From Squalus acanthias (lineage: Eukaryota), in contig CM059431.1 of the NCBI GenBank assembly GCA_030390025.1, positions 119,972,001 to 120,036,000 of the forward strand: 64,000 nt of DNA. Reading direction: 5' to 3'. This document shows, in pieces, positions 12,011 to 61,912 of the stretch. The number at the start of each line of letters is the position of its first letter. The first letter of the stretch is position 1. The notes below the pieces were generated by a model. It was given only the letters and a program-made list of their open reading frames with translations. It did no database searches and had not been told where the DNA came from. The translations under genes were made by a program, and so were the position numbers.

Positions 12011-13290
12011 TGAAGGGATTATTACTAGTCCTAGCCCCTTTTGGGCTACCCCGGATCAGGCATATTCCCCAGACGTTCACCTTCAACTAAAGTTAAAGGG
12101 AGCTGAATCCTAAAGACGCTTAATTGGGTCTAAAGGTCCAGACTATCTCTCCCTAAAGGAAAGGAACAGCTTGAAGATGTTACCATCCTCCAGATAGCAC
12201 TTTTAATAAGTTTAGCTAGACTGTAACCTTCCGGACATTATGAGGGTCCGGAAAACTCCCTCAGAATTCTGCAACTCCTCACCAAAGAGTGTACAGAGAT
12301 TGAGTTTGCGAGTTTGATTCAGAAGTACTATGTGAGACGATTCTAAAAATATATAGATTTATTAAAGAACCGACATGTAATTACAGTAAGTATTTCAATC
12401 GCAACATTAACAGTTCCAAATACAAAAATCTTTCAATTCTTATTATCAGAGATCCTTATTCTCAAATCTTAACTTTGTTACATTTTTACATTTCTTAGTC
12501 TTATTCCAGGATATCCACCAAAATCAAATACAAGTACCTTGATCCCCGAGATACAAAGTTGTAGACTTACAGAGCTTGCCTCTGAAGCCTGAGAATCACT
12601 TTGCCCCTTTACAGCGATTCTGTCTTCCCATTTGAAAGTTCAATTTTTATACCCTTTCTCAGTGGTATTTCCTTTGAAGTTTTCTGCTGATGTAAGCTAA
12701 TTATCTCTAGTCATTTTTCTGTTGACCCCTTCTATTCTTACAGTCAGTTCAGCTGGTAGCAAGCAGAATCGTGTCTCTCCTTTAGGTGTTTCAAGTTCCC
12801 CCACTTGATGCCAATCTTACCAAAGTCTTCTGTTTGTGTCTTTTGCATTTAGCACACCTCAGCTGGTTGCACCATTGTCTTCTTAGTTACCTCAGTTGGT
12901 TGCATTAAGAATTATGTCTCTACCCTAGGTGTTCGAAGCTCATCATAAAAAGCAGTGTAACAGCAGTGGTTCTATTTGATGTCATTTTTACAAAGGCATA
13001 TGTTTCTTTAATTTTCTGTGTTTCATTTCAAAGTGTTGGTTTAAGACACCTTAACAGGGTATACCATTGTGTTCTTTCCAAAGCTGCAGACTTTAAGAAC
13101 CTCCAACCTTCTGATTCAACAAAGCTATTGATTCAGTGTCAACAACTTATCTTATCTCAATAGCCTGTATGCTGTTTACAGCTTGAGATTGTTGAGGCTT
13201 CCAGATTTTCAAACGTAGTTTGTCATGTTACAAAGGCCAGAATATTTCATAGAATGGTGTATTTTTCTGAATATGGCGTATTCCTTCACA
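12011..13290 (-). mobile_element. Solo LTR (about 1.28 kb)
   Basis: TG...CA termini and a CTAA 4-bp TSD on both sides. Minus-strand TATAAAA at about 12646-12652 and AATAAA at about 12358-12363. A second copy lies at 55745-57056. Confidence 0.85.
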
Positions 13291-18889: not shown

Positions 18890-19948
18890 TCAGTGTCAAA
18901 ACTCACGTGCAAATAATGCAAGGTGCTGAAGGGTGCCAGTCACCCAGGGAACCATAGCCCAGCCAGAGATCAATGCTTTCTGGAGAGAGGAGAATATTGG
19001 CAAGAAAAAAAAATCAAAGTCTGCTTTTATTTTATTTTCAGTGCTTCAAAACAGTGCATAGAAACCCCTTGTGCTGGAATGTGTTAGTCTTTTGTTCAGC
19101 AAGTCACTTTAAATCATACAATAAGTATCAAGGCATATTCAGTCAAATTGGATTAGACTTATTGCATATTCTACTCCAATCTGTGTGTCAGTCACAACCA
19201 TGACAATTGTTTTGGCTGAATAAATAAACCAGTTCAAATTAATTCAATGCTTGCTTGAAGTTGCAGTCATTTAAGTAAAGATTTTTTTATACATTATTTA
19301 GAATTTTTCCCCAACTTGTTTTTGGCTGAGAACAATGCCTCGGCATTGAAGAATGACTGCGGCACTCCGAGTATTTTAAATTATTCACAAAAGACTGTGG
19401 CAATTTAACAGCTGAAAGTCTGCATACACCACTCAGTGAACTTTGTTGCTTGTTCGTCTTATTTTTTGCACATTAATTTGGCCAAGGAAGTCGCTTATGG
19501 AGGTTCATGAATTTTCATAGATTTGTAAATGAACATTCAAGAATTTGCATGCGTTTGAATCTTCTCATTATAGTAGTAATACTTATGAATAACCATGAAA
19601 CTGAAAGGAGTCACTTAACATTCAAAGGTATTGCAGAATATACAAGGATCACTTGAACTTTGATGATGATCATTAATAGCCGTTTATCAACTCAATAAGT
19701 TCAAAATCATTTTGGCAGGGAAAATGCATGTGCGCTTCACTGCTAAAGTGAGTAATTTCTACTAATGGTTTAGTCAGCATATAAAGCTCATTTTGTTGTT
19801 TGTCTTTTCAAATGTTAAAGCTCATTATTAAATTAGGCCCTGAAATTACAGTGCGGGATCTGAAAATGAAGATGAGGTTTTTAAAGTAATTGCGCCAACG
19901 GATGGAGAACCAGTGGGGGTCGATAAGGAAAGGAGTGGTAAACGAATG

Positions 19949-20185
19949 GGACTTTGTGTGGGATAGGGTGATGTGTTGGTAGGTGAATGGGGCTCTGCGT
20001 CAGATAGGCTGTGATGAGTTGGACTTTGTGTGGGATAGGGTGATGTGTTGGTAGGTGAATGGGGCTCTGCGTCAGATAGGCTGTGATGAGTTGGACTTTG
20101 TGTGGGATAGGGTGATGTGTTGGTAGGTGAATGGGGCTTTGCGTCAGATAGGCTGTGATGAGTTGGACTTTGTGTGGCATAGGGT
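19949..20185. repeat. 72-bp tandem repeat, about 3.3 near-identical copies, inside an L2-like remnant
   Basis: GGACTTTGTGTGG units start at 19949, 20021, 20093 and 20165. Confidence 0.95.
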
Positions 20186-21274
20186 GCGATAGTTGGAATT
20201 TGGGAGGGTAGTCAGGAAGATGTTGGAAAATTCAAATCTGAAGGTGAAAAAGGCATGAGTTAGGGTTTCAGCAACACTAGAGGTAAAGATGGAGGTGGGT
20301 GATATTTACATATACATAGATACAAATAGTAAAATGGCAGACTTTTTTTCCAATCACGTTTTTAAATAATCTTCCGTTGATATGACAAAGCCCTGTTGGG
20401 GAAATACACATATAGGTGATTAAACACAAATATTTTCCATTATCTCAAGGTTTTATATAAATATATATAACATATTGAATAAAAAGTTGCATGTTTTTAT
20501 ACTTTCACAAATTAGCCTATTCTTTGTGGTTATTATCCCCATCTGAGCCTAACCAGCAATATCTCTTCTCATATAAACTTTGACACCGACCAGTGACTCA
20601 ATGGATGCATCACAGATTTGCCCCGGCATTTATGTGCAACGTACAATATTAATTAATTAGCAGTATCAATTAGTTTTTGATCCATTTGTGTATCGTGTGA
20701 GGTACTTGCAATGGAAGATGTATTGAGCCAGCAAACAATTTGAATATGTATCCATTCTTTCAGAAGGTTTCCCCGAGCTGGAGCTAATGCAGTGAAATAT
20801 TTTCCAGCATTTCTAATGGTCGGAATCAGATCTCAGAGATAAAGGGCCCAATTTTCCTGTCGTTAACTCAACCCTGCATTCTGGGTTTCCTTTCCTTTCA
20901 TTTCGTCTGTTGGTTATTAATTCCTTGCCCCTGCGGCCTTGGCAAATGCTGCTAAGGGGGTGAAATGTGTTTACAGCCTTTCTGTGGACTTTCAGGAGAT
21001 TATTTTGTCCAAAGGATGAAAACAGGCGCTAAGTGGGTGTTGTGCTAAAAATAAACGCCTGTTTGTAAGTGTGGATTTAGCACGCAATTTTCAGGCTAAT
21101 TGGTGATTATCATGATTTAAACGTACCTGCAGGGGCTGAAGCCGACAACTGTTGGTTCGGCACTCAAGCGCTGATTAGATGCAATTTTCCTCGATCTGTA
21201 TATCTAGCCTGCACTCACCTACTTACACTAAAGGGATGGAGTGCACTGTCTGGAAGAAAAACCAACATGGAAGG

Positions 21275-27600: not shown

Positions 27601-29324
27601 GAACATACCTCATCCTCACCAATCTACCTGTCACAGATGCATCTATCCATGACAGTATTGGTAGGAGTGATCACCGCACAGTCCTTGTGGAGACAAAGTC
27701 CCAGCTGCACATTGAGGACACCCTCCATTGTGTTGTGTGTCACTAATTAGGATAGATTCAGAACAGATCGAGCAGCTCAAAACTGGACATCCAATGAAGC
27801 ACTGCGGGCCATCAGCAGCAGCAGAATTGTATTCCACCTTAATCTGCAACCTCATGGCCTGACATAGCCCTCACTCTACCTTTACTATCGAGCCAGGGGA
27901 CCAACCCTGGTTCAACAATGAGTGTAGAAGAGCATGCCAGGTGCAGCACCAGGCGTACCTAAAAATGAGGTGCCAACCTGGGAAAGCTGCAACACAGGAC
28001 TACATGCATGCTAAAAAGCAGAAGCAGCATGCTATAGACAGGGCTAAGTGATCCCACAACCAATGGACCAGATCAAAATTCTGCAGTCATGCCACATCCA
28101 GTCGTGAATGGTGGTGAACAACAAAACAACTAACAGGAGGATGAGGCTGCATGAACATCTCCATCCTCAATGATGGCAGAGCCACATACGTGAGTGCAAA
28201 AGACAAGGCTGAAGCGTTTGTAACCATCTTTAGCCAGAAGTGCCGAGTGGATGATCCATCTCGGCCTCCTCCTGAGGTCCCCATCATCACAGAAGCCAGT
28301 CTTCAACCAATTCGATTCACTCCACGTGATATCAAGAAACGGCTGAATGCACTGGATACAGCAAAGGCTGTGGGCCCCGACAACATCCCGGTTGTAGTGC
28401 TGATGACTTGTACTCCAGAACTAGCTGCACCTCTAGCCAAGCTGTTCCAGTATAGCTACAACACTGGCATCTACACGACAAAGTGATAAACTGCTCAGCT
28501 ATGTTCTATCCACAAAAAAGCAGGTCAAATCCAATCCGGACAATTGCCACCCCATCAGTCTACTCTCAATCATCAGCAAAGTGAGGGAAGGGGTCGTCAA
28601 CAGTGCTATCAAGCGGCATTTACCTGCTCACCGATTCTCAGTTTGGGTTCCATCAGGACCACTAGGCTCCAGACCTCATTGCAGCCTTGGTCCAAACATG
28701 GACAAAAGAGATGAATTCCGGAGGTGAAGTGAGAGTGACTGCCCTTAACATCAAGACAGTATTTGACTGAGAGTGGCATCAAGGAGCCCTCGTAAAATTG
28801 AAGTCAATGGCTGGAGTCATACCTAGCACAAAGGAAGATGTTTGTAGTTGTTGGAGGCCAATCATCTGATTCCTAGGACATTGCTGCAGGAGTTCCTGAG
28901 GGCAGTGTCCTAGGCCCAACCATCTTCAGCTGCTTCATCAATGACCTTCCCTCCATCATAGGGTCAGAAGTGGGGATGTTCGCTGATGATTGCACAGCGT
29001 TCAGTTCCATTCACAACTCCTCAGATAATGAAGCAGTCTGTGCCCACGTGCAGCAAGACCAGGACAACATTCAGGCTTGGGCTGATAAGTGGCAAGTAAC
29101 ATTCGCATCACACAAGTGCCAGGCAATGACCATCTCCAACAGAAGAGAATTTAACCACCGCCCCTTGACATACAACGGCATTATCATCGCTGAATCTCCC
29201 ATCTGTAAGAATACATCATTTACTGTAAAAGTTTGCTGTAACTTGACCAAACTTAAAAGCTGACCTAATTCAATGTTGAGAGGTCGCACAACACCAGGTT
29301 ATAGTCCAACAGTTTTATTTGAAA

Positions 29325-30725: not shown

Positions 30726-32289
30726 ATTCAATGTACCAGCATTCCTTGAGGCCAAGAGACTTTCTGCTGAACAAATGTAAAATAAACTGCTGTGACTGTG
30801 AACTGTGAAGGCTGCAAGTTGTTAATCAGATAAGGAAGCGACAGGCCCTGAGCAGGAACAAACTGTTGGGCGGTACAAAGACAGGAACATCTTCAGGCAA
30901 ATGGTATGAACAGCCTTGGGGCCCACTGATTAACTGACAAGATGATAAGAAGAAAAGGAGAACAACTGCCGACCATTTGTCACAGTTCGGGACACATATG
31001 CATTGAGGGACTTGCCCAGGTTTTCAGGGTATAAGAGATGCTGTTTTAAGACACTCGGGGCTGCAGCCTGGCGACCTGGTCAGTTGCCAGAAATCATACG
31101 CCTATTCACTGCAGGATTGACCACTCGCTGGTGTTAGTACGTATGTAGAGTTGGCTTATTATCGCTTGATCTTAAAGTAAAGGGTTAGCCCTGTGTATGC
31201 TGAGGTATAATTGGGAATTATTATACTCTACATAGCTGTCGGATGCTTACTTGTAATCTCTTGCTGATTTTAAGTAAAAGGAAGTTATTCTCAAATCCTT
31301 GTGTTTTGTGTTGTCTGTTCCACGGGTCTGAACTTTGGAAACTGTTGGAAGGGTTAAAGGACAAGGGTGAATTTAAACGTCTGACACATCATCAACATCC
31401 TGGGGGTCACCATTGACCAGAAACTTAACTAGACCAGCCACATAAATACTGTGGCTACAAGGATGGGTCAGAGGCTGGTTATTCTGCAGCAAGGGACTCA
31501 CCTCCTGACTCCCCAAAGCCTTTCCACCAACTACAAAGCACAAGTCAGCAGTGTGATGGAATACTCCCCACTTGCCTGGATGAGTGCAGCTCCAAGTACA
31601 CTCAAGAAGCTGGACACCATCCAAGACAGAGCAACCGCTTGATCGACTCCCCATCCACCACCTTAAAGCTTAACTCCCTCCACCAATGGCGCTCTGTGTC
31701 TGAAGTGTGTGCCATCTACAAGGCATCTTCGGCAGCACCTCCCAAACCCTCGACCTCTACCACCTAGAAGGCGCATCGGTACACTACCACCTCCAACTTC
31801 CCCTCCAAGTCACACAACATCTTGACTTGAAAGTATATCGCCGTTCCTTCATCGTCGCTGCACCAAAATCCTGGAACTCCCTCCTAACAGCACTGTGGAA
31901 GTACCTTCACCACAAGGACTACAGTGGTTCAAGAAGGCAGCTCACCACCACCTTCTCAAGGGCATTTAGGGATGGGCAATAAATGCTGGCCTTACCAGCG
32001 ATGCCCACATCCCATGAATGAATTAAAAAAATAGAAATAAATAAGGACATGAAAAGACCAGCTGGTCCATTGAGCCTGTCCTTCCTTGGCATGATGTAAC
32101 TTCTGAACATTGTCACCACCATCCCCCCCCCCGCCACCCCCCGACCCACCCTCCACCCCCCAACAGAGGGGGAGGCAAAAATAACAAAGACCAATTTAGG
32201 AAAAAAAAACTCTTGGAAATTCCTCTTAGACCCTCAAGAATGATCAAACAAGCTTCAGAAGACTACAGTCACTGGTGACAGAAGTGTTG

Positions 32290-43313: not shown

Positions 43314-46300
43314 GGGCTCGATTTTACCAGGCCCGAGGAGGCGGGTTTGGAGGCATGTGAGTTGTCAAAATCGCAAAAAATGGCAGCCGGGCCCGATCCC
43401 GCCTCCATCCCACCTCCGAGCAATTTTCCCACATTCGTGTTTTCAGACCCCATTTCCATCCCGCCTCCAAGAGACGGGATAGGCCCTTAAGGCCCTTAAC
43501 AACCACTTCATTGCCTCTATAATCCCATTTTGAGAGGCCTTTCTGATTTTTAGACATTTCCCCCATCCTACACGCCTCCTCTGGAACATGCCAGGTAATC
43601 CTGGTGGCCTCACAATTGGATTGCTTAGTAACAGCTGCAGCTCCACCATTAAAAAGGAGTTTTCAGCAGTCATCATTTGCAGGTGGCAGAACTTTGTTGT
43701 CTCAGGTCTGGGGGAGCTTTTAGCAGGTCTACTCATTGTTGTGGAAGTTTGGAGCCTGACACCCATCTCCAGTGTGTCCTGCTGGGAAACCCCTCTCCCC
43801 ACCTTGACAGAGCGCTTCCTCAGCTGAGGCATATACCAGAAGCATGGCGAACATTTATTTCCTTTCCTCCTGGACATCAGATTCAGACGAAGACCAGCCG
43901 TGGCAGCAGCAGAACCCTGAACAACAGCAGCACCAACAGCAGCAGCAACAGCAGGAGCGCCAAGCTGCTGCTCACCCACCTGAAGCTGCACAGGCCAGGA
44001 GGCACCAGCGCGCGACCACATTGCTGCCCGGGATGCAAGGGACGCACTCATCTTGGCCAGATTTGCTTAGCCTGCACAATCAAACACTTTTGCCTTGCAC
44101 CTTCTTACCAGACCATCGACAATGGACAAGAACCTGCGGATTCCTATTACTCTGACCACCATACTGACAATTGCAAGTCGCCCTAAGCCCTCAATGTGAC
44201 AGTCCCATTTGCGAAATGACACAGGCCACAACTTCAACAGTTTGCAATCAAATCTCTTTATGATACCATGACAAGGATGGCTGGTCAAAAAACAATACAT
44301 CACAGCACCCAAGTGACTACCCTTGTGACTACTTGTGCTATATCTTCCTCTTACGCATGCTCCTATGTGGTGCTTCCCCTGTGGCTTCAGCAGATGTGGT
44401 GGCCCCTTGCTCAATTTCTTGCTGCTCCTGTCTTGACACCTTTGGAGGGCGTCCTCTGAGGTTGTGAACCTGTGAGGACTCGGCATCAGTCTACTGCTCC
44501 TGCGGCTATGCAGGGGCTGAGACGCCCATCTCAGTTGGGTGAGGACTCTGGTGGGGCTCTGACCGAGGGCTTTGCATGGTCACATGAGCGCTTGGAGAGG
44601 AGCTCCCACTTCCTTGTTGTCTGCCACCAGCATCCCTCTCATGGGTCAGCCCCACTTCAGAGCTAGCAAGTGGCTTGACAGCACCTTGCTGCATTGCAGG
44701 GGGGCCATGAGGACCCATTTCTGCACTGGAAGTCCTACTCCAGAGACTTCCATGAAGGTCTGGTTTGTATGCTTAATAGCTGACCATCGCTCCTCAAGAG
44801 ATGTCACTCTATTCTGAACAATTACCATGTTTTCAATACCCTGGCGACTAAGCTCCTCCATGGCCGTAGCCATCCTCTCCTCTATGGTATCTAGCCTCAC
44901 CACAGTGTTAGCCATCCTTTCCACGGAAGTTGCCATCTTTTCCGCGGTGATGCGTTCATGCGTCAATGCCTCCACAAAGGCTCTGCTCATGTTCACGATG
45001 GACTCCTCCATTTCGCTCCACACTCGCAGCGACCCTGGAGACAAAACCTGCCAGAGACTCCTGCACCTGTTCCTGGAGTTCCAGCACTGCTCTCCTTCTG
45101 GATAGACCTGGAGGCACAGGGTCGACATGCAGCTGAGCCGAGCTGGCAGAGTCCTGCGCCCTCCGATGAGGACTCTCCACTGCTGTCCCTGTCTCCACCA
45201 TCTACTGATGCTCACTACTCTATCTCGCAAAGGTCCCACTGATGTGTGAGTGTCTGCGCTGGTGCTGGGTGCGCTGAATTCTGCTGATGCTGCGCCCTCA
45301 GAGGTTGCAGCTTTCTCTGAGGAGTCTGGAGGCTCAGGCTGTTCCTCCTGGACAGTGGGGACGGGGGCTTACGATGGTCCTGTGGGGGAGTAAAGGAAAG
45401 AGTAGGAGATGTGAGGTCAAGGTTACATGCACATTGAATAGTGCAGATGGTCATAAGTCAATCTGTTAGAGCATTAGAATCATTATCAGTGACTCATCCT
45501 ATGTCAATGAGAGAGATGCCAAACTATTCTGTCATCAGCTTGCTGTGATGTGCCCGTCTGTCCATCCCCCACTTGGGAATCCTCCTCGATCCCAGCAATT
45601 TCCAGGGCTGCCTCCTCCCAGGCAGTGAGCTGGGCTACTGAGGGTGGCCCTCCTCCTGTCATGGCTCTTTCCCTCTTATTGTGGGCTCTCTTTTCCTGCA
45701 ATGAGGGACACAAGTGGAGTTTGAGTGAGAATGAAGGAGTTAGTGTAGAGAATCCATAGCATAGATGCTTAGAAGGAGACAAAGGACCCTCCCTGTGTAT
45801 TGTAAGTTGTTGTCATTGCATCACAGTGATAGGGAGTGTGAGGGCTGCATGGTCGAATAGTTAAGTGAATGTGACCATAGAGAGAGAGGGAATGGGTAAG
45901 GCTGCAGGGATGTCAGTGTCAAGTGGGATGTGGAGGAAGAGGTTGGCAAAGCAGGGTGCTGGTGAGGAGAGACGATGGGGATCAGATTGAGGGTGATGGG
46001 AAAGTCATATTCACTTTTCCTGTGCGGAGAAGGTCATGAAACCTCTTCCTGCATTGCAGCCAGGTTCTGCGGCTCATCGAGATGGAGTTGACCTCCTGGG
46101 CCACTTGCAGCCACACAACTTTAGTCTGCTGGGGTGGCTTTTTTCTCCCTGAGGAAGGGAAGAGCACCTCCTTATTGGATCTTGCTCCCTCCACCAGAGC
46201 TTGGAGGGAGGGCTCATCAAACCTTGGAGCACACTTTGGCCTACTGCTGGACATAGTTGATCAATGAAGTGCTTACTACAATGGCCATAAAATTTGCAGT

Positions 46301-51500: not shown

Positions 51501-52308
51501 GTGAATACCTGACCTTCAGTCACTCACAGATCTGTTTCTTCGCCCCTTGTAGAAGTAGAAAGTGCAAACACAAGTGTGATTGAGAGGACTGGACGTGGGC
51601 CACCACAACTAGCCCAGCTCACAGATGCAGAGGAGGATGTCATGGAGATAAGTAGCACATCTGCACGTCTCTCTGGAACTCACAGATAGCTGGCGACAGA
51701 ATTGAAAAATCTCTGATACACATGCTGACGATGAGAAGACTGAGTATGGTGACTGTCAAGGTTGTTACTTTGCCACAACTATTTCATATCCTTTTCTTTT
51801 CTCTTCCAGGGCGTTTACACATACAGCAAGTGTAACTGGACATGCATGAGGACGCTTCTTCAGATTCCTCAGAGGGCCTCATTCCTTCTGAGGGTGCACC
51901 ATTACAGATGCACGTTGATAGATCCACTTAGATAGTTAGTTGGGTTTTGACCTAGTGATTCACAATTCACAAGTGAGCATTGACATGAATCTTGTAATTC
52001 ATGTGGAAATGACTTATGAAATAATACTGGGCGGCCTGCTGGTGGCGCTGTCCATGGAGAGTATAAATACTCGGGCATGGGCCCAGCTTGCGCGGGACAT
52101 TCTTAACAGGAACTAGTAAAGGACACAACTGGACCTCCATGTTGTAAAACAGTTGATTAAAGCTTTGTGTAACGCTTAGACCAAGTGCCTAGTAGTTTTC
52201 TTACGTCAATTTAATCAACTGGACCTGCTCCACGCTCTGAGTGGTTTTGGGAACAGACAGCTATGACTCAAACGGTAAAAAGGAACTGGATGTAGTAATC
52301 AAGCCATC

Positions 52309-53465
52309 ATGGAGAAACTACTCCGACCCGGCCGTCTTGACCTGGAACCGAATTCACCTACAACTGCTAAGGTATGGAAACACTGGTATCGTACCTTCAG
52401 CAACTTCCTCAGGGTGTGTGGTGAGAATGTTCCTGATAAGTTAGAGATACTTGCCAATTATGTATCCCCTTATGTGTTTGACTATATCGAAGACTGTGTC
52501 GACTATGACTCCACTATCCGAATACTACAGCAACTATATGTTAAGGCCCCAAACAAAATTTTTGCTCGGCATCTACTAGCCACAACTCGACAACAACCCA
52601 GGGTATCACTTGACAAATTCCTTCAAAAGCTTCACAGGCTCAGCAAAGATTGTAATCTCAAGGCTGTCTCGGCTGAGCAGTACCAGGAGGAGTTAATTTG
52701 TGATTCTTTTATTAATGGAATTGCGTCTCCCTTCATACGCCAGCGTCTGTTGGAGAATAAAACCCTTGAGTTACAAGCTGCCTATATCCAGGCATATTCT
52801 CTGGACTTGGCAAAAAAAATGCAGATGCCTATTTTTTACCACGTGCACGGACCGCTGCTATCACTTTTAGTGACTCCTCCGATAAGCCTCAGGCAGAAGC
52901 CCTCACTGATGATGACTCTATCCTAGCTGATGACGACCCTACCCTAGCGGCATCTTGGCGATCTAAAAGGAAGTGTTTCTTCTGTGGAGGTGCATTTCAC
53001 GATAAGAAATTTTGTCCTGCTCGTAATGCAACCTGCAATCATTGCAGTAAGAAAGGCCACTTCTCGAAAGTATGTCAGTCAAGAGCCTCTTCTAGGGTTA
53101 CAGCTGCTATCTATAAAACTGCTTCCCCCCCAAGAGCCACTACTAATGTTACAGCTGTCATCTATAAAACTGCTCCTCCCCCAAGAGCCACTACTAATGT
53201 TACAGCTGTCAAGGATAAAACTACCCCTCCTTCCATCACAGCTGTTTTTCCCCAAAGCCTGTCGCATGCAGCCACAAAGGTTTCGGTAAATGGACACATT
53301 TTGAGTACATTAATCGACTCATGCAGCTCTGACAGCTTCATCAGTGAGCAGGCTGTTAGTAAGTTAAAACTGCATATTTACCCCTCGGACAGGGAAATTG
53401 CAATGGCTCTGATGACGCTGACCACCAACTCTTCCAGCTTTTGTCTTGTCGACCTTATTCTCGAT
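52309..53465 (+). pseudogene. Gypsy gag and protease
   Basis: MEKLLRPGRLDLEPNS..WKHW, then a frameshift at the A-run near 52812. Twin Zn knuckles CFFCGGAFH..C / CNHCSKKGHFSKVC and the protease motif LIDSCSSDSF follow. Confidence 0.85.
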
Positions 53466-54420
53466 GGCCGCCTTTGGCTACACCATACAGTATCGACCCG
53501 GCAAGGAGAATGTGGCCCCGGATACCCTCACGCGTGCATTCTGCTCTTCCATGTCAACTTCGACTCTTGCGGATCTTCATACTGACTTATGCCAACCTGG
53601 CGTTACCCGTATGTTGCACTTCGTTCGATCTAAAAATCTCCCATTTTCTATGAGAGGCGTGAAAAGTACATGCTCCACTTGTAGAATTTGCATAGAATTA
53701 AAACCGCAATTCTTCCGTCTGCCGGATGGCTCGCTCATAAACGCTACACAGCCTATGCAGCGACTCAGCATTGACTTTAAAGGGCCATTGCCTTCCTCAA
53801 CGCGAAACAACTACTTGCTTACTATGGTGGACGAATATTCATGCTTTCCCTTTGCTTTCCCAATATGCTTACTTCCACAGTGATCAAATGCCTCGATCAG
53901 GTCTTTTCCCTTTGCGGTACGGCCAATTTCAGCCACTCTGAGCGGGGTCCCTCCTTCATGTCAAGTAAACTCAAAAGTTATCTTTCCCAACGGGGAATTG
54001 CCACAAGTAAAACAACACCGTATCATCCTATTGGAAACGGACAGGTTGAGAGATACAATGCTATCATTTGGAACGCTGTTCATCTTGCACTGAGGTCACA
54101 CAATCTACCAGACCAGCAGTGGGAAACTATGCTCCCTGACGCGTTGCATTCCATCAGGTCTCTTCTTTCTACATCCACCAATGTTACTCCTCATGAACAA
54201 TTCTTCGGGTTCCAGCGTCGCTCCACTCATGGGACGTCCCTACCATCATGGTTAGCAGCTCCTGGCTCCGTGCTGCTCTGAAGATTCGTCCGATCCTCCA
54301 AGAGTGATCCCCTCATCGACGAGGTGGAACTAACGGATGTCAATCCTACATACGCGTACGTGTGGTACCCTGATGGCCGGGAGTCCACAGTTTCACTTCA
54401 GGATCTGGCTCCCTGCCCAA
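53466..54420 (+). pseudogene. Gypsy integrase (with the connection/RNaseH tail), frameshifted
   Basis: YTIQYRPGKENVAPD, H..C(H)PG..CxxC, SIDFKGPLP..VDEYS, HS(D)RGPSF, PYHPIGNGQVERYN, TPHE.FFG. Confidence 0.9.
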
Positions 54421-55744
54421 CTGGTCCCACAGACCCAATCGATAGACGGACCCGTATTAACGACGCTGATACTCCGCGCTCCTCCGAGGATGACGCCCTA
54501 CCCGGGACATCAAGGGATCTGCCAGCTACTCCGCTGGATCAACCCGGGGAACAGAGCACTCCCTGTGGGATGGCCGTCCGAAGCCAGGACGCCGGTCAAT
54601 CACCGGCTACTGAGCAGGATGAAGCCAGCTCTGCACCTGTGGGGGCCCGCACCCGGAGCCACAATCTCCCCAGTCCCCTTCAGGTCGATCGAAGTGACAC
54701 GGGCTCTGTCAGCCCGCCGGTACGAACCAAGCGACCTAGGGACCAAGACACGGTCCGAGGAGACGTGTCTTCCAGCCACAAATGGAGATCCAAACGACTG
54801 CGGCTATTCATAGTCTGATTAATCCGATAGAAGGAAGTCGCCGGACTTCCAATCTTTCAGGTGGGAAGAATGACATGAATCTTGTCATTCATGTGGAAAT
54901 GTCTTATGAAATAATACTGGGCTGCCTGTTGGTGGCACTGTCCAGGGAGAGTATAAATACTCGGGCACGGGCCCAGCTTGCACAGGACATTCTTAACAGG
55001 AACTAGTGAAGGACACAACTAGACCTCCATGTTGTAAAACAGTTGATTAAAGCTTTGTTTAACACTTAGACCAAGTACCTAGTAGTTTTCTTAGGTCAAG
55101 CATGAGCAGACACTAGGGGCAGGGACAGCTGTGTAGAGTCCATGTCGGGAGGTGCAATCCTTTCTGAGCTCTACTCAGCCAGGCACAGATGCTGAAGCTC
55201 GGGGGCTATTGTTGAGAAGGAGAATGCTAGAGGTGCATGAGCAACTTTGCCAGATACTAAAAGACATGCCAAGCACACTCTTCACAATATTATGGATAAT
55301 AGAGGAGTCCATCTCGATCACTAGTGGATTGGTGGTACAGGTAATTGTGAGAATGTCTGCCATGGAGAGAGTGACCACCTCCATGGAGCTTCAAGCACAG
55401 CTCACAAATGAGTCCATGCAGGTCATTTGCACAGCCTTGCAGGCTTTGGATGCAAACATGTCTGCCGTTCAAAACAGGGTGACAGATACCTTATCCTTGG
55501 CCTTCCAACACATCACTGATCTTCAGCAAGCTAGTCTGCAGCAGAGTGATGTGGCATTGGCCCAGGAGAGGGATGATGTCAAAAGGAGACATGGAAGTGG
55601 GAACTCCACTCAAAGCGCTCCCACTTCTCACATGTTGACCCCCCCCCCACCTCAGTCAGTACCCGACATGCTGCCTCCTGTCACAATGGTGGGTCTGCCC
55701 CTGTCCAGGTGCAGGTGGAGCAGACTTTGGTGTGGCCCTAAGGG

Positions 55745-57056
55745 TGAAGGGATAACTACTAGTCCTAGCCCCTTTAGGGCTACCCCAGATCAGGTGTATT
55801 CCCCAGGCGTTCACTTTCAACTAAAGTTTGAGGTAGCCTGAATCCTAAAGACACTTAATTGGGTCTAAAGGTCTGGACCATCTCTCCCTAAAGGAAAAGA
55901 ACAACCTGAAAATGTTACCATCCTCCAGATAGCACTTTTAATAAGTTTAGCTAAACTGTAATGTTCCGGTAATTATGAGGGTCCGGAAAACTCTCCCAGA
56001 ATTCTGCAACTCCTCACCAAAGAGTGTACAGAGATTGAGTTTGCAAGTTTGATACAGAAGTCTTATGTGAGACAATTCTAAAAATATACAGATTTATTAA
56101 AGCACCGACATGTAATTACAGTAGGTGTTTCAATCGCAATATTAACAGATCAAAAAAGAGAAAGCTTACAATTCTTATTATCAGATCTTAACTTCATTAC
56201 ATTTTTACAGTTCTCAGTCTTTATTCCAGGATATCCACCAAAATCAAATACAGTACAATACCTTGATCCCCGAGGTACAAAGAGTTGTAGACTTACAGAG
56301 CCGCCTCTGAAGCCTGAGAATCACTTTGCCCCTTTACAGCGAGACTATCATCCCATTTGAAAGTTCAATATTTATACTCTTTTTCAGTGGTATTTCCTTT
56401 GAAGTTTTCTGCTGATGTAAGCTAATTATCTCTAGTCATTTTTCTGCTGACCCCTGCTACTCTTACAGTCACCTCAGCTGGTAGCAATGCAGAATTATGT
56501 CTCTACCCCAGGTGCCCCAAGCCCACCATATAAAAAGGTATAACAGCAGGGGCATCTATTTGATGTCATTTTTACCAAGGTCTTCTGTTTGTGTCTTTTT
56601 AAGAAGTGTAAATTAAAACACCTCAACCAGGGTGATCTATGCAATTCTTAGTCACCTCAGCTGGTTGTAACACAGAATTATGTCTCTCTAGGTGTTCCAA
56701 GTTCAACACAAAAACGGTTTGACGGCAGGTGTTTCTTTTACTTGATGTTATTTTTACGAAGGCATTTGTTTCTTAATTTTATGTGTTTCTTTCTGAATTG
56801 TAATTTAGAACACCTTAACAGGGTGTACCATTGTGTTCTTTCCAAAGCTTCAGACTTCAGGAGCCTCCAACCTCCTGTTTCAATAAGGTTATTGATTCAG
56901 TGTCAACAACTTATCTTATCCCAATAGCCTGAATGCTGCTACAGCTTCTCCATTGTTAGGCCTTCAGATTTCCAAACCCAGTTTGTCATGTTTTAATAAG
57001 GCCAGAATTCTTTCATAGAATGTTGTATTTTTCTGAATACGGCTTATTCCTTCACA
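55745..57056 (-). mobile_element. Solo LTR, second copy of the 12011-13290 family
   Basis: TGAAGGGAT...TTCCTTCACA termini and an AGGG TSD on both sides. Colinear with 12011-13290. Confidence 0.9.
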
Positions 57057-59904: not shown

Positions 59905-61912
59905 ACATAAGAACATAAGAAATAGGAGCAGGAGTAAGCCATACGTCCCCTCGAGCCTGCTCCACCATTCAATAAGATTATGGCTAATGTTTGACCTCAA
60001 CTCCACTTTCCCGCCTGATCCCCATATCCCTTGATAACCTTTGAGTCCAAAAATCTGTCGATCTCAGTCTTGAATATACTCAACGAATGAGCATCCACAG
60101 CCCTCTGGGGTAGAGAACTCCAAAGATTCACATCCCTCTAAGTGAAGAAATTTCTCCTCATCTCAATCTTAAATGGCTGACCCCTTATCCTGAGACTATG
60201 CCCCTAGTTCTAGACTCTCCAGCCAGGGGAAACAACCTCTTAGCATCTACCTTGCCAAGCCCTCTCAGAATCTTAAACGTTTCAATGAGATCACCTCTCA
60301 TTCTTCTAAACTCCAGAGAGTATAGGCCCATTCTACTCAATCTCTCCTCGTAGGACAACCCTCTCATCCCAGGAATCAATCTAGTGAACATTTGTTACAC
60401 CCCCTCTCAGGCAAGTAAATCCTTCGTTAAATACCAAAACTGTTCACAGTACTCCAGGTGTGGTCTCGCCAAAGCCCTGTACTATTGCAGCAAGACTTCC
60501 TTACTATTGTACTCCAAACTCCTTGCAATAAAGGCCAACATACCATTTGCCTTCCTAATTGCTTGCTGTACCTGCATCTTAACTTTCTGTGTTTCATGTA
60601 CAAACATGGACAAAAGAGCTGAATTCCAGAGGTGAAGTGAGAGTGACTGCCCTTAACATCAAGGCAGCATTTGACTGAGTGTGGCATCAAAGAGCCCTAG
60701 TAAAATTGAAGTCAATGGGAATCAGGGGGAAAACTCTCCACTGGCTAGAGTCATATCTAGCACAAAGGAAGATGGTTGTGGTTGCTGGAGGTCAATCATC
60801 TCAGCCCCAGAACATCACTGCAGGAAGTGCTCAGGGAAGTGTCCTTGACCCAAACATCTTCAGCTGCTGCATCAATGACCTTCCCTCCATCGTAAGGTCA
60901 GAAGTGGGGATATTCGCTGATGATTGCACAGTGTACAGTTCCATTCACAACTCCCCAGATAATGAAGCAGTCCATGCCCACATGCAGCAAGACCTGGACA
61001 ACATTCAGGCTTGGGCTGATAAGTGGCAAGTAACATTTGCACCACACAAGTGCCAGGCAATGACTATCTGCAACAAAAGAGAGTCTAACCACCGCCACTT
61101 GACTTTCAACGGCATTACTATTACCAAATCCCCCACCATCAACATCTTGGGGGTCACCATTGACCAGAAACTTAACTGGACCGGCCACATAAATACTGTG
61201 GCTACAACAGCAGGTCAGAGGCTGTGTCTCACCTCCTGACTCCCCAAAGTCTTTCCACCATCTACAAGGCACAAGTCAGGAGTGTGATAGAATACTCTCC
61301 ACTTGCCTGGATGAGTGCAGCTCCAACAACACTCAAGAAGCTCGACACTATCCAGAACAAAGCAGCCGACTTGATCGGCACCCTATGCACCACTTTAAAC
61401 ATGCACTCCCTCCACCACACACGCACCATGACTGCAGTGTTTACCATCTCCAAGATGCACTGCAGCAACTCGCCAAGGCTTCTTTGACAGCACCTCCCAA
61501 ACCCGCGACCTGTACCACCTAGAAGGACAAGGGCAGCAGGCGCATGGGAACACCATCACCTGCAAGTTCCCCATCAAGTTACACACCATCCTGGCTTGGA
61601 AATATATCGCCGTTCCTTCATGGGCGCTGGGTCAAAATCCTGGAACTCCCTCCCTAACAGGACTATGGGAGTACCTTCACCATAAGGACTGCAGCAGTTC
61701 AAGAAGGCGGCTCACCACCACCTTCTCGAGGGCAATTAGGGATGGGCAATAGATGCTGGCCTTGCCAGCGATGCCCACATCCCAGGAACAAATAAGAAAA
61801 TAAACACCCAAATCCCTCTGAACACCAACATTTAATAGTTTCTCACCATTTAAAATATATACTGTTTTTCTATTCTTCCTACCAAAGTGAATAACCTCAA
61901 ATTTCCCCACAC
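59905..61912 (-). mobile_element. CR1 LINE 3' fragment, split by an antisense LINE
   Basis: FTRLIPGMRGLSYEERLSRMGLYSLEFRRMRGDLIE and the (TTCTTATG)n tail at 59905. The upstream part GKFEVIHFGRKNRK lies at 61803-61912. Confidence 0.9.
60601..61800 (+). mobile_element. CR1/L2-superfamily LINE, 5'-truncated, inserted in CR1
   Basis: WHQRALVKL..QGSVL..IFADDC..WADKWQVTF..EYSPLAW. Same family as 27608-32030. Confidence 0.9.

Follow-up and report, generated by a model that had tools for sequence, protein, structure and literature searches.

A defective retrotransposon in the 64,000-nt stretch of Squalus acanthias DNA analyzed here (the window) is an RT-deleted copy from a widespread lineage of animal Gypsy elements. 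The primer-binding site (PBS) of this lineage is the complement of a 12- to 13-nt stretch of its own long terminal repeat (LTR), and that stretch probably serves as the primer in place of a tRNA (we put the probability of this reading at about 0.7). The feature is real and its signature is robust across the lineage; from the sequences we infer the mechanism, and on those grounds self-priming appears well supported.

A defective Gypsy element and its LTR complement

The element occupies 3,118 bp (51981-55098) and is of the Ty3/Gypsy type, retaining protease (PR) and integrase (IN) sequences, TG..CA LTRs, a target-site duplication, and a polypurine tract. Its features are as follows.

51976-51980, + strand: 5' target-site duplication AGCAT, equal to the 5-mer at 55099-55103
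51981-52208, + strand: 5' LTR, 228 nt, TG..CA; both borders coincide with loose ends of other copies
52062-52069, + strand: TATAAATA box, present in both LTRs, 100 nt upstream of the arm end
52125-52145, + strand: predicted family-specific hairpin containing the upstream copy of an 11-nt repeat (52126-52136)
52150-52161, + strand: candidate self-primer CAGTTGATTAAA; its 3' end is the poly(A)-signal-like hexamer ATTAAA (52156-52161), with the putative cut after 52161
52162-52186, + strand: possible counterpart of the lineage RCC..GGY hairpin, GCTT (52162-52165) with AAGT (52183-52186)
52209, + strand: lone A separating the LTR CA from the primer-binding site; all 28 families read CAA here
52210-52221, + strand: primer-binding site TTTAATCAACTG, pairing with the LTR segment
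52216-52226, + strand: downstream copy of the 11-nt direct repeat
52309-53471, + strand: gag with twin CCHC knuckles, plus N-terminal protease; frame disrupted near 52820-52940
53458-53471, + strand: deletion junction, where the end of protease, RT, and RNase H (about 458 codons in an intact relative) are absent
53458-54557, + strand: RNase H tail and integrase; disrupted near 53860, stop near 54280
54859-54870, + strand: polypurine tract AGGTGGGAAGAA
54871-55098, + strand: 3' LTR, 228 nt
55099-55103, + strand: 3' target-site duplication AGCAT (5 bp)

The LTR borders agree with loose ends of contigs from other sequencing runs at 51979-51981 and 52208-52209, and the two LTRs are 93.4% identical (15 differences). 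Both RT and RNase H have been lost: residues 348 to 805 of the intact relative P0001, whose best PDB match is Ty3 Gag-Pol, find no match in the window copy, and a contig of another run carries 1638 other letters between 53471 and 53725. With its reading frames broken and RT and RNase H deleted, the window copy is defective; any movement must have preceded the deletion or drawn on the RT of an intact copy. In all four runs, the LTR bins are far deeper than the internal bins and 52208 is a loose end in many contigs, a pattern suggesting, with depth not being equivalent to copy number, that there are many solo LTRs.

Several other repeats were seen in the window. Within the element, a short tandem duplication lies between the zinc knuckles and the protease (53110-53240, “TAVIYKTA.PPRATTNV” repeated), an interval that varies among other copies. 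ORF-like stretches at 44646-45368 (- strand) and 55137-55841 (+ strand) resemble each other, and two copies of a repeat that flanks the 3' side of the element lie at 12011-13174 and 55745-56938; these are possibly DNA transposon remnants. A LINE-type reverse transcriptase fragment is found at 60679-61239, with more copies at 28690-29104 and 31387-32037, and a 72-nt tandem repeat is present in at least 3 copies at 19944-20186.

The preliminary description of this DNA reported that the 12 nt at 52210-52221 (TTTAATCAACTG) are the exact reverse complement of 52150-52161 (CAGTTGATTAAA), and re-reading of the sequence bears this out; the two arms are 48 nt apart. Its accompanying observations also held: the 12-mer is identical in the aligned 5' and 3' LTRs, it overlaps ATTAAA (the hexamer at 52156-52161 closes the arm), the gag has two CCHC zinc knuckles, and there is no TGG-type site next to the LTR, the sole nearby TGG being at 52220, 12 nt past it. 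When the LTR was base-shuffled, a complement of any 12-mer starting 0 to 5 nt past it arose in 19 of 200,000 trials.

The leader RNA is not unusually stable relative to shuffled sequences (z of +0.96 and -1.06), and the case therefore rests on register and covariation rather than on folding energy. The GCTT/AAGT stem is weak, not significant when judged from the window copy alone (P=0.57), and missing from the minimum-energy fold. One contig (run X13) connects 52162 with 52208 across opposite strands and has a 48-letter side, so that the loop between the arms is inverted; this single record could reflect a micro-inversion between the inverted repeats or else a fold-back product that was captured.

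Covariation of the two arms across the lineage

A search with the gag N terminus yielded 170 proteins from 596 candidates, the best 120 of the 170 at 47 to 71% identity; mantis shrimp, prawns, lobster, an isopod, corals, a sea anemone, a snail, and an aphid are among the hosts named in the matches listed. From a search with the gag alignment, we took the best 80 of 237 confirmed metagenome loci (L001-L080) and 2 GTDB contigs (L081 and L082). Loci were picked by gag and not by primer site, and the 82 loci plus the window fell into 35 families at 80% gag DNA identity. The two GTDB contigs place this eukaryotic-type lineage inside two bacterial metagenome-assembled genomes, a placement that is likely host contamination. 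Scans of IMG/VR found no relative, and neighbors in the ESM Atlas were generic retrotransposon-gag proteins only. All 8 intact full-length relatives have the domain order PR-RT-RH-IN, and target duplications in the lineage are 5 bp. RT-like outgroups in the locus flanks were few and without names.

In 28 of the 35 families, a perfect complement to the LTR of at least 10 nt (10 to 19 nt) lies just past the LTR, compared with 8 of 580 shuffles of 29 family representatives that reach 10 nt. The register is the same throughout, with the site directly after CAA in all 28, and the distance from arm to site is 24 to 72 nt. A TGG, our sole criterion for a tRNA-type site, is found at the site in none of the 28, and there are 26 distinct 12-mers among these families. 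As for the other families, L060/L079 and L063 fit with one wobble or one mismatch, L064/L065 look rearranged, L011 has no clear fit, and usable upstream DNA is missing for L024, L050, and L072.

Counted from the 3' end of the arm, Watson-Crick pairing stands at 93 to 100% at positions 1 to 12 (partly circular for positions 1 to 10, the 28 families having been chosen for a perfect 10-mer), 89% at position 13, 75% at 14, 61% at 15, and 54% at 16, reaching background from 17. Positions 12 to 14 hold 73 of 84 possible pairs, against 37.9 (maximum 54) when the families are swapped. At positions 15 to 18 there is a small excess (44 of 112 versus 33.2, reached by 58 of 5,000 permutations), and positions 19 to 24 show 47 of 168 pairs versus 44.4 swapped. 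Individual pairings of 16 to 19 nt occur in L003, L033/L039, L061, L076, and L082.

The preliminary description had named covariation between the arms as the check on its proposal, and this check supports it across the 28 families. Changes were counted by parsimony on a gag tree built with IQ-TREE from 35 distinct arm/site types: two-sided ones make up 62 of 65 at positions 5 to 12, while position 13 has 7 of 9 and position 14 has 2 of 15. The deep branches of this tree are weakly supported, and it omits duplicates, loci with <14 nt, and L007, L058, and L009, for which anchoring was misplaced or impossible. On this sequence evidence, the complement is a lineage trait and not chance.

One locus, L031, has position 7 altered in both LTRs and in the site, while diverging by 1.1 to 1.7% from 5 of the 6 family members compared and by 3.6% from the sixth. 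A double change of this kind would arise in one step if the primer were copied into the site; two selected mutations would be a less economical account. One-sided mismatches were seen in L012/L014/L016, L019, and L033/L034. The change in L014 postdates insertion, since its 3' LTR is unchanged, and the mismatch in L033 is present in both LTRs. A mismatch at position 14 persists in young copies of one family (L038, L041, L046, and L052).

The arms also share features beyond pairing. In the 28 families, the 3' hexamer of the arm is ATTAAA in 14, AATAAA in 3, and a variant in 11, and the bases that follow the arm are GCC in 18, ACC in 6, GCT in 3, and GCG in 1. In 22 of 28 families, the first base past the arm opens a stem of 4 bp or longer, that of the RCC..GGY hairpin (shuffles, mean 4.6 and maximum 10). 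Within the arm, G is kept at position 10 in 26 of 28 families, T occupies position 13 in 19 of 28, and position 12 is variable (A in 7, G in 7, T in 9, and C in 5). The arms of L015 (1981-2060), L027, and L044 end in GTTAAA, and a separate AATAAA or AATAAG lies inside the loop; these families indicate that the primer end and the poly(A) signal can be uncoupled.

Other candidate signals were not shared. The box TATAAATA at 52062 is present, as first described. The argument built on it, that the complementary segment is probably not at the cap site, is weak, with a spacing that is not common to the relatives. Only 8 of 28 families have any TATA-like match within 220 nt upstream, at distances scattered from 43 to 219 nt, which rules out a TATA box at fixed spacing as a lineage feature. 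The 11-nt direct repeat CAACTGGACCT likewise exists at 52126-52136 and 52216-52226, the upstream copy differing at one base in the 3' LTR; the competing fold suggested for it does not extend to the lineage, a repeat of at least 10 nt being found in 1 of 28 families, that of the window. In the window copy, CCATGTTG (52137-52144) could also pair with CAACTGG (52216-52222), and some copies from other runs have an extra base after 52222.

A proposed priming route and its competitors

We propose the LTR arm as the primer on account of the fixed register at the LTR end, the apparent lack of a tRNA-type site, and the two-sided pattern of change. The 5' LTR copy in the RNA would fold onto the site, and the RNA would be cut right past the hexamer, where the duplex meets the hairpin; if Tf1 is a guide, the element's own RNase H is the likeliest agent. 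Because the stem begins right past the arm, this predicted cut would fall at the junction of two helices. RT would then extend the new 3' end over the 24- to 72-nt remainder of the LTR, and the strong-stop DNA would move to the 3' R. Plus-strand synthesis would copy the kept primer back into the site, so that the arms stay matched. The primer would lie at the RNA's 5' end or near it, with a length possibly set by the gap of about 13 bp between the active sites of RT, and the poly(A) signal, in the 5' LTR alone, would be buried in the same duplex.

RNase H cutting directed by the 5' end of an RNA is familiar from work on retroviral RTs. In Tf1, pairing with the PBS involves bases 1 to 11 of the RNA, and cleavage by RNase H falls between bases 11 and 12, as described in the available text of PMC7175516. 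The portions of PMC11042837 at hand report that a DNA copy of the PBS is kept in about half of the Tf1 cDNA and that the retained primer serves as template for the PBS. The active sites of Ty3 RT are given as about 13 bp apart in the relevant part of PMC5371799; by analogy, we infer a link between this distance and the 13-nt edge of covariation in the present lineage.

Evidence on where the RNA starts points both ways. The assembled contigs of other runs, none of them on record as RNA and none able to reveal start sites, gave no peaks of starts or ends. The sharp edge at 13 nt favors a short primer, which fits as well as or better than a start based on the TATA box, whereas the strong TATA box of the window's family, the 16- to 19-nt pairings, and atypical start bases would favor a longer one. 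Positions 12 and 13 are not typical start nucleotides, which counts against a short capped primer, and neither the 16- to 19-nt pairings nor the small excess at positions 15 to 18 would be predicted from a strict 13-nt primer. We dropped a fixed 11-nt primer beginning at an initiator A, an idea prompted by the conserved G at position 10, given that position 12 pairs in 27 of 28 families despite using all four bases and that position 13 covaries. A primer built by splicing is unneeded, the complement being contiguous in the LTR.

An alternative hypothesis, which we consider unlikely, is that these elements self-prime with the 3' end of a longer 5' fragment (starting near the TATA box, at about 52090), or with the 3' LTR copy, either from the same RNA or from one packaged along with it, cut past the hexamer. 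The atypical bases at positions 12 and 13 and the 16- to 19-nt pairings of several families would suit this reading, as would the presence in both LTRs of TATAAATA, which lies 100 nt upstream of the arm end, and an arm whose terminal hexamer is a signal for 3'-end formation (17 of 28 families have AATAAA or ATTAAA). It is opposed by TATA spacing that is not common to the families and by two-sided change that ends past position 13. The position-14 mismatch that persists in L038, L041, L046, and L052 also speaks against it; such persistence is expected if the copied primer stops there. No precedent was found in the self-priming literature, as far as the accessible parts of those sources go.

It is still less probable that the duplex serves only to hide the 5' poly(A) signal, priming having another source. 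A hexamer that always ends the arm, with a partner that exists solely beside the 5' LTR, is what such masking would produce, and masking is plausible as a second role of the duplex, judging from where the hexamer lies. It leaves unexplained why the register at the LTR end is fixed: a masking partner need not start one base after the CA, yet it does in 28 of 28 families. Moreover, by the TGG criterion no family of the 28 is left with a tRNA-type site, and pairing is kept even in the 11 of 28 families whose hexamer is neither AATAAA nor ATTAAA.

We regard as very improbable a host tRNA fragment or other small RNA as the primer, with the LTR match as a by-product. The LTR arm bears what we take to be a loose likeness to a tRNA D-loop, and half-tRNA priming is known in Copia elements (PMC6317226, in the part available). 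Against this stand the 26 different sites among 28 families, each matched by its own LTR, the 62 of 65 changes that are two-sided, and a search of Rfam with 51900-52400 that gave no match up to an E value of 1. ARAGORN predicted no tRNAs in the window and loci L001 to L080, leaving nothing to match against the sites. A chance inverted repeat, to which a leader that folds no better than shuffles might point, has a negligible probability, being refuted by the family comparison (28 of 35 families versus 8 of 580 shuffles) and disfavored by the 19 in 200,000 obtained for the window copy.

Relation to known elements and implications

Self-priming by the LTR arm would make the lineage Tf1-like in its working, as judged by sequence features, but two features of Tf1/sushi elements fail here, the chromodomain and the pretzel fold. 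As in Tf1, Tf2, and Tj1 of the Tf1/sushi group, the PBS beside the 5' LTR complements an 11- to 13-nt stretch of the element's own LTR, and the domain order is PR-RT-RH-IN. A tRNA site, which the Tf1/sushi group lacks, is probably missing here too (TGG in 0 of 28 families). The chromodomain that Tf1/sushi elements carry at the C terminus of integrase is missing in all 8 intact full-length relatives at Pfam E values up to 0.05. The three-duplex pretzel is defined in bioRxiv 10.1101/2022.12.06.519325, according to the part of that source available. In a crude test of 28 families, its duplexes were not in excess: the longest stems between the loop and the post-site sequence measured 5.9 versus 5.6 in shuffles, and those between the LTR end and the loop measured 4.4 versus 4.3. 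The present lineage further differs from Tf1/sushi elements in its local RCC..GGY hairpin, an arm that ends in a poly(A)-like hexamer, an arm-to-site distance of 24 to 72 nt, a twin CCHC gag, and hosts that include crustaceans, cnidarians, a mollusc, and an aphid.

Self-priming has been predicted for the TAR and Tcn1 elements of plants from a stretch of at least 10 nt, located 0 to 5 nt past the 5' LTR, that is complementary to the LTR (PMC6317226, in the sections available), and the window element carries such a stretch. In that source, TAR is a Copia lineage and Tcn1 a chromovirus, both of plants, and the self-primers listed in those sections include no animal non-chromovirus.

Among animal Gypsy clades, Mag, CsRn1, Cigr-1, MolGy, and Saci-2 are similar in their short LTRs, single ORF of about 1,200 amino acids, and lack of a chromodomain. 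The gag of Mag has twin CCHC knuckles, a trait matched by the gag here, and Mag is primed by tRNA. CsRn1 elements have a CHCC gag, a tRNA-Trp site, and 4-bp duplications, and Saci-2 has a CCCH gag (both from the available text of PMC2582038). The CsRn1 clade is ruled out by the twin CCHC knuckles, the absence of TGG, and the 5-bp duplications, and Saci-2 by its gag motif (CCHC here versus CCCH in PMC2582038). Primer sites are unmentioned in the main text of two surveys of mollusc and annelid Gypsy clades (PMC6238403 and PMC8556966), and the lineage may for this reason equal a clade named there whose trait went unremarked; a motif search aimed at naming the clade, in part of the supplements of two papers, gave no match.

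The literature covered, which lies outside subscription journals and Repbase Reports and was in part available, holds nothing on self-priming in an animal Gypsy lineage other than chromoviruses; an earlier note may exist. In those sources, self-priming is shown only in Tf1 of fission yeast; apart from that, it is linked with the chromoviruses related to Tf1 and with two plant lineages. We speculate, with less than even confidence and from sequence patterns, that self-priming evolved separately in a large animal Gypsy lineage outside the chromoviruses. A single 12- to 13-bp duplex would conceal the poly(A) signal of the 5' LTR and, when cut at the RCC..GGY junction by an RT that measures about 13 bp, would turn that signal into the 3' end of the primer, possibly making the element independent of host tRNA and letting it escape silencing through tRNA fragments.

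The proposal makes sharp predictions, namely, the cut site, the length of the primer, and natural compensatory variants. It suggests that LTR finders with tRNA-based PBS filters would miss such a group. If self-priming by the LTR arm is true of this large non-chromovirus animal lineage, whose RNA architecture differs from that of Tf1, then priming without tRNA arose or survived more often than has been assumed, which bears on the idea, raised in PMC3601003 (in the part available), that tRNA priming was a late addition in the evolution of LTR elements.
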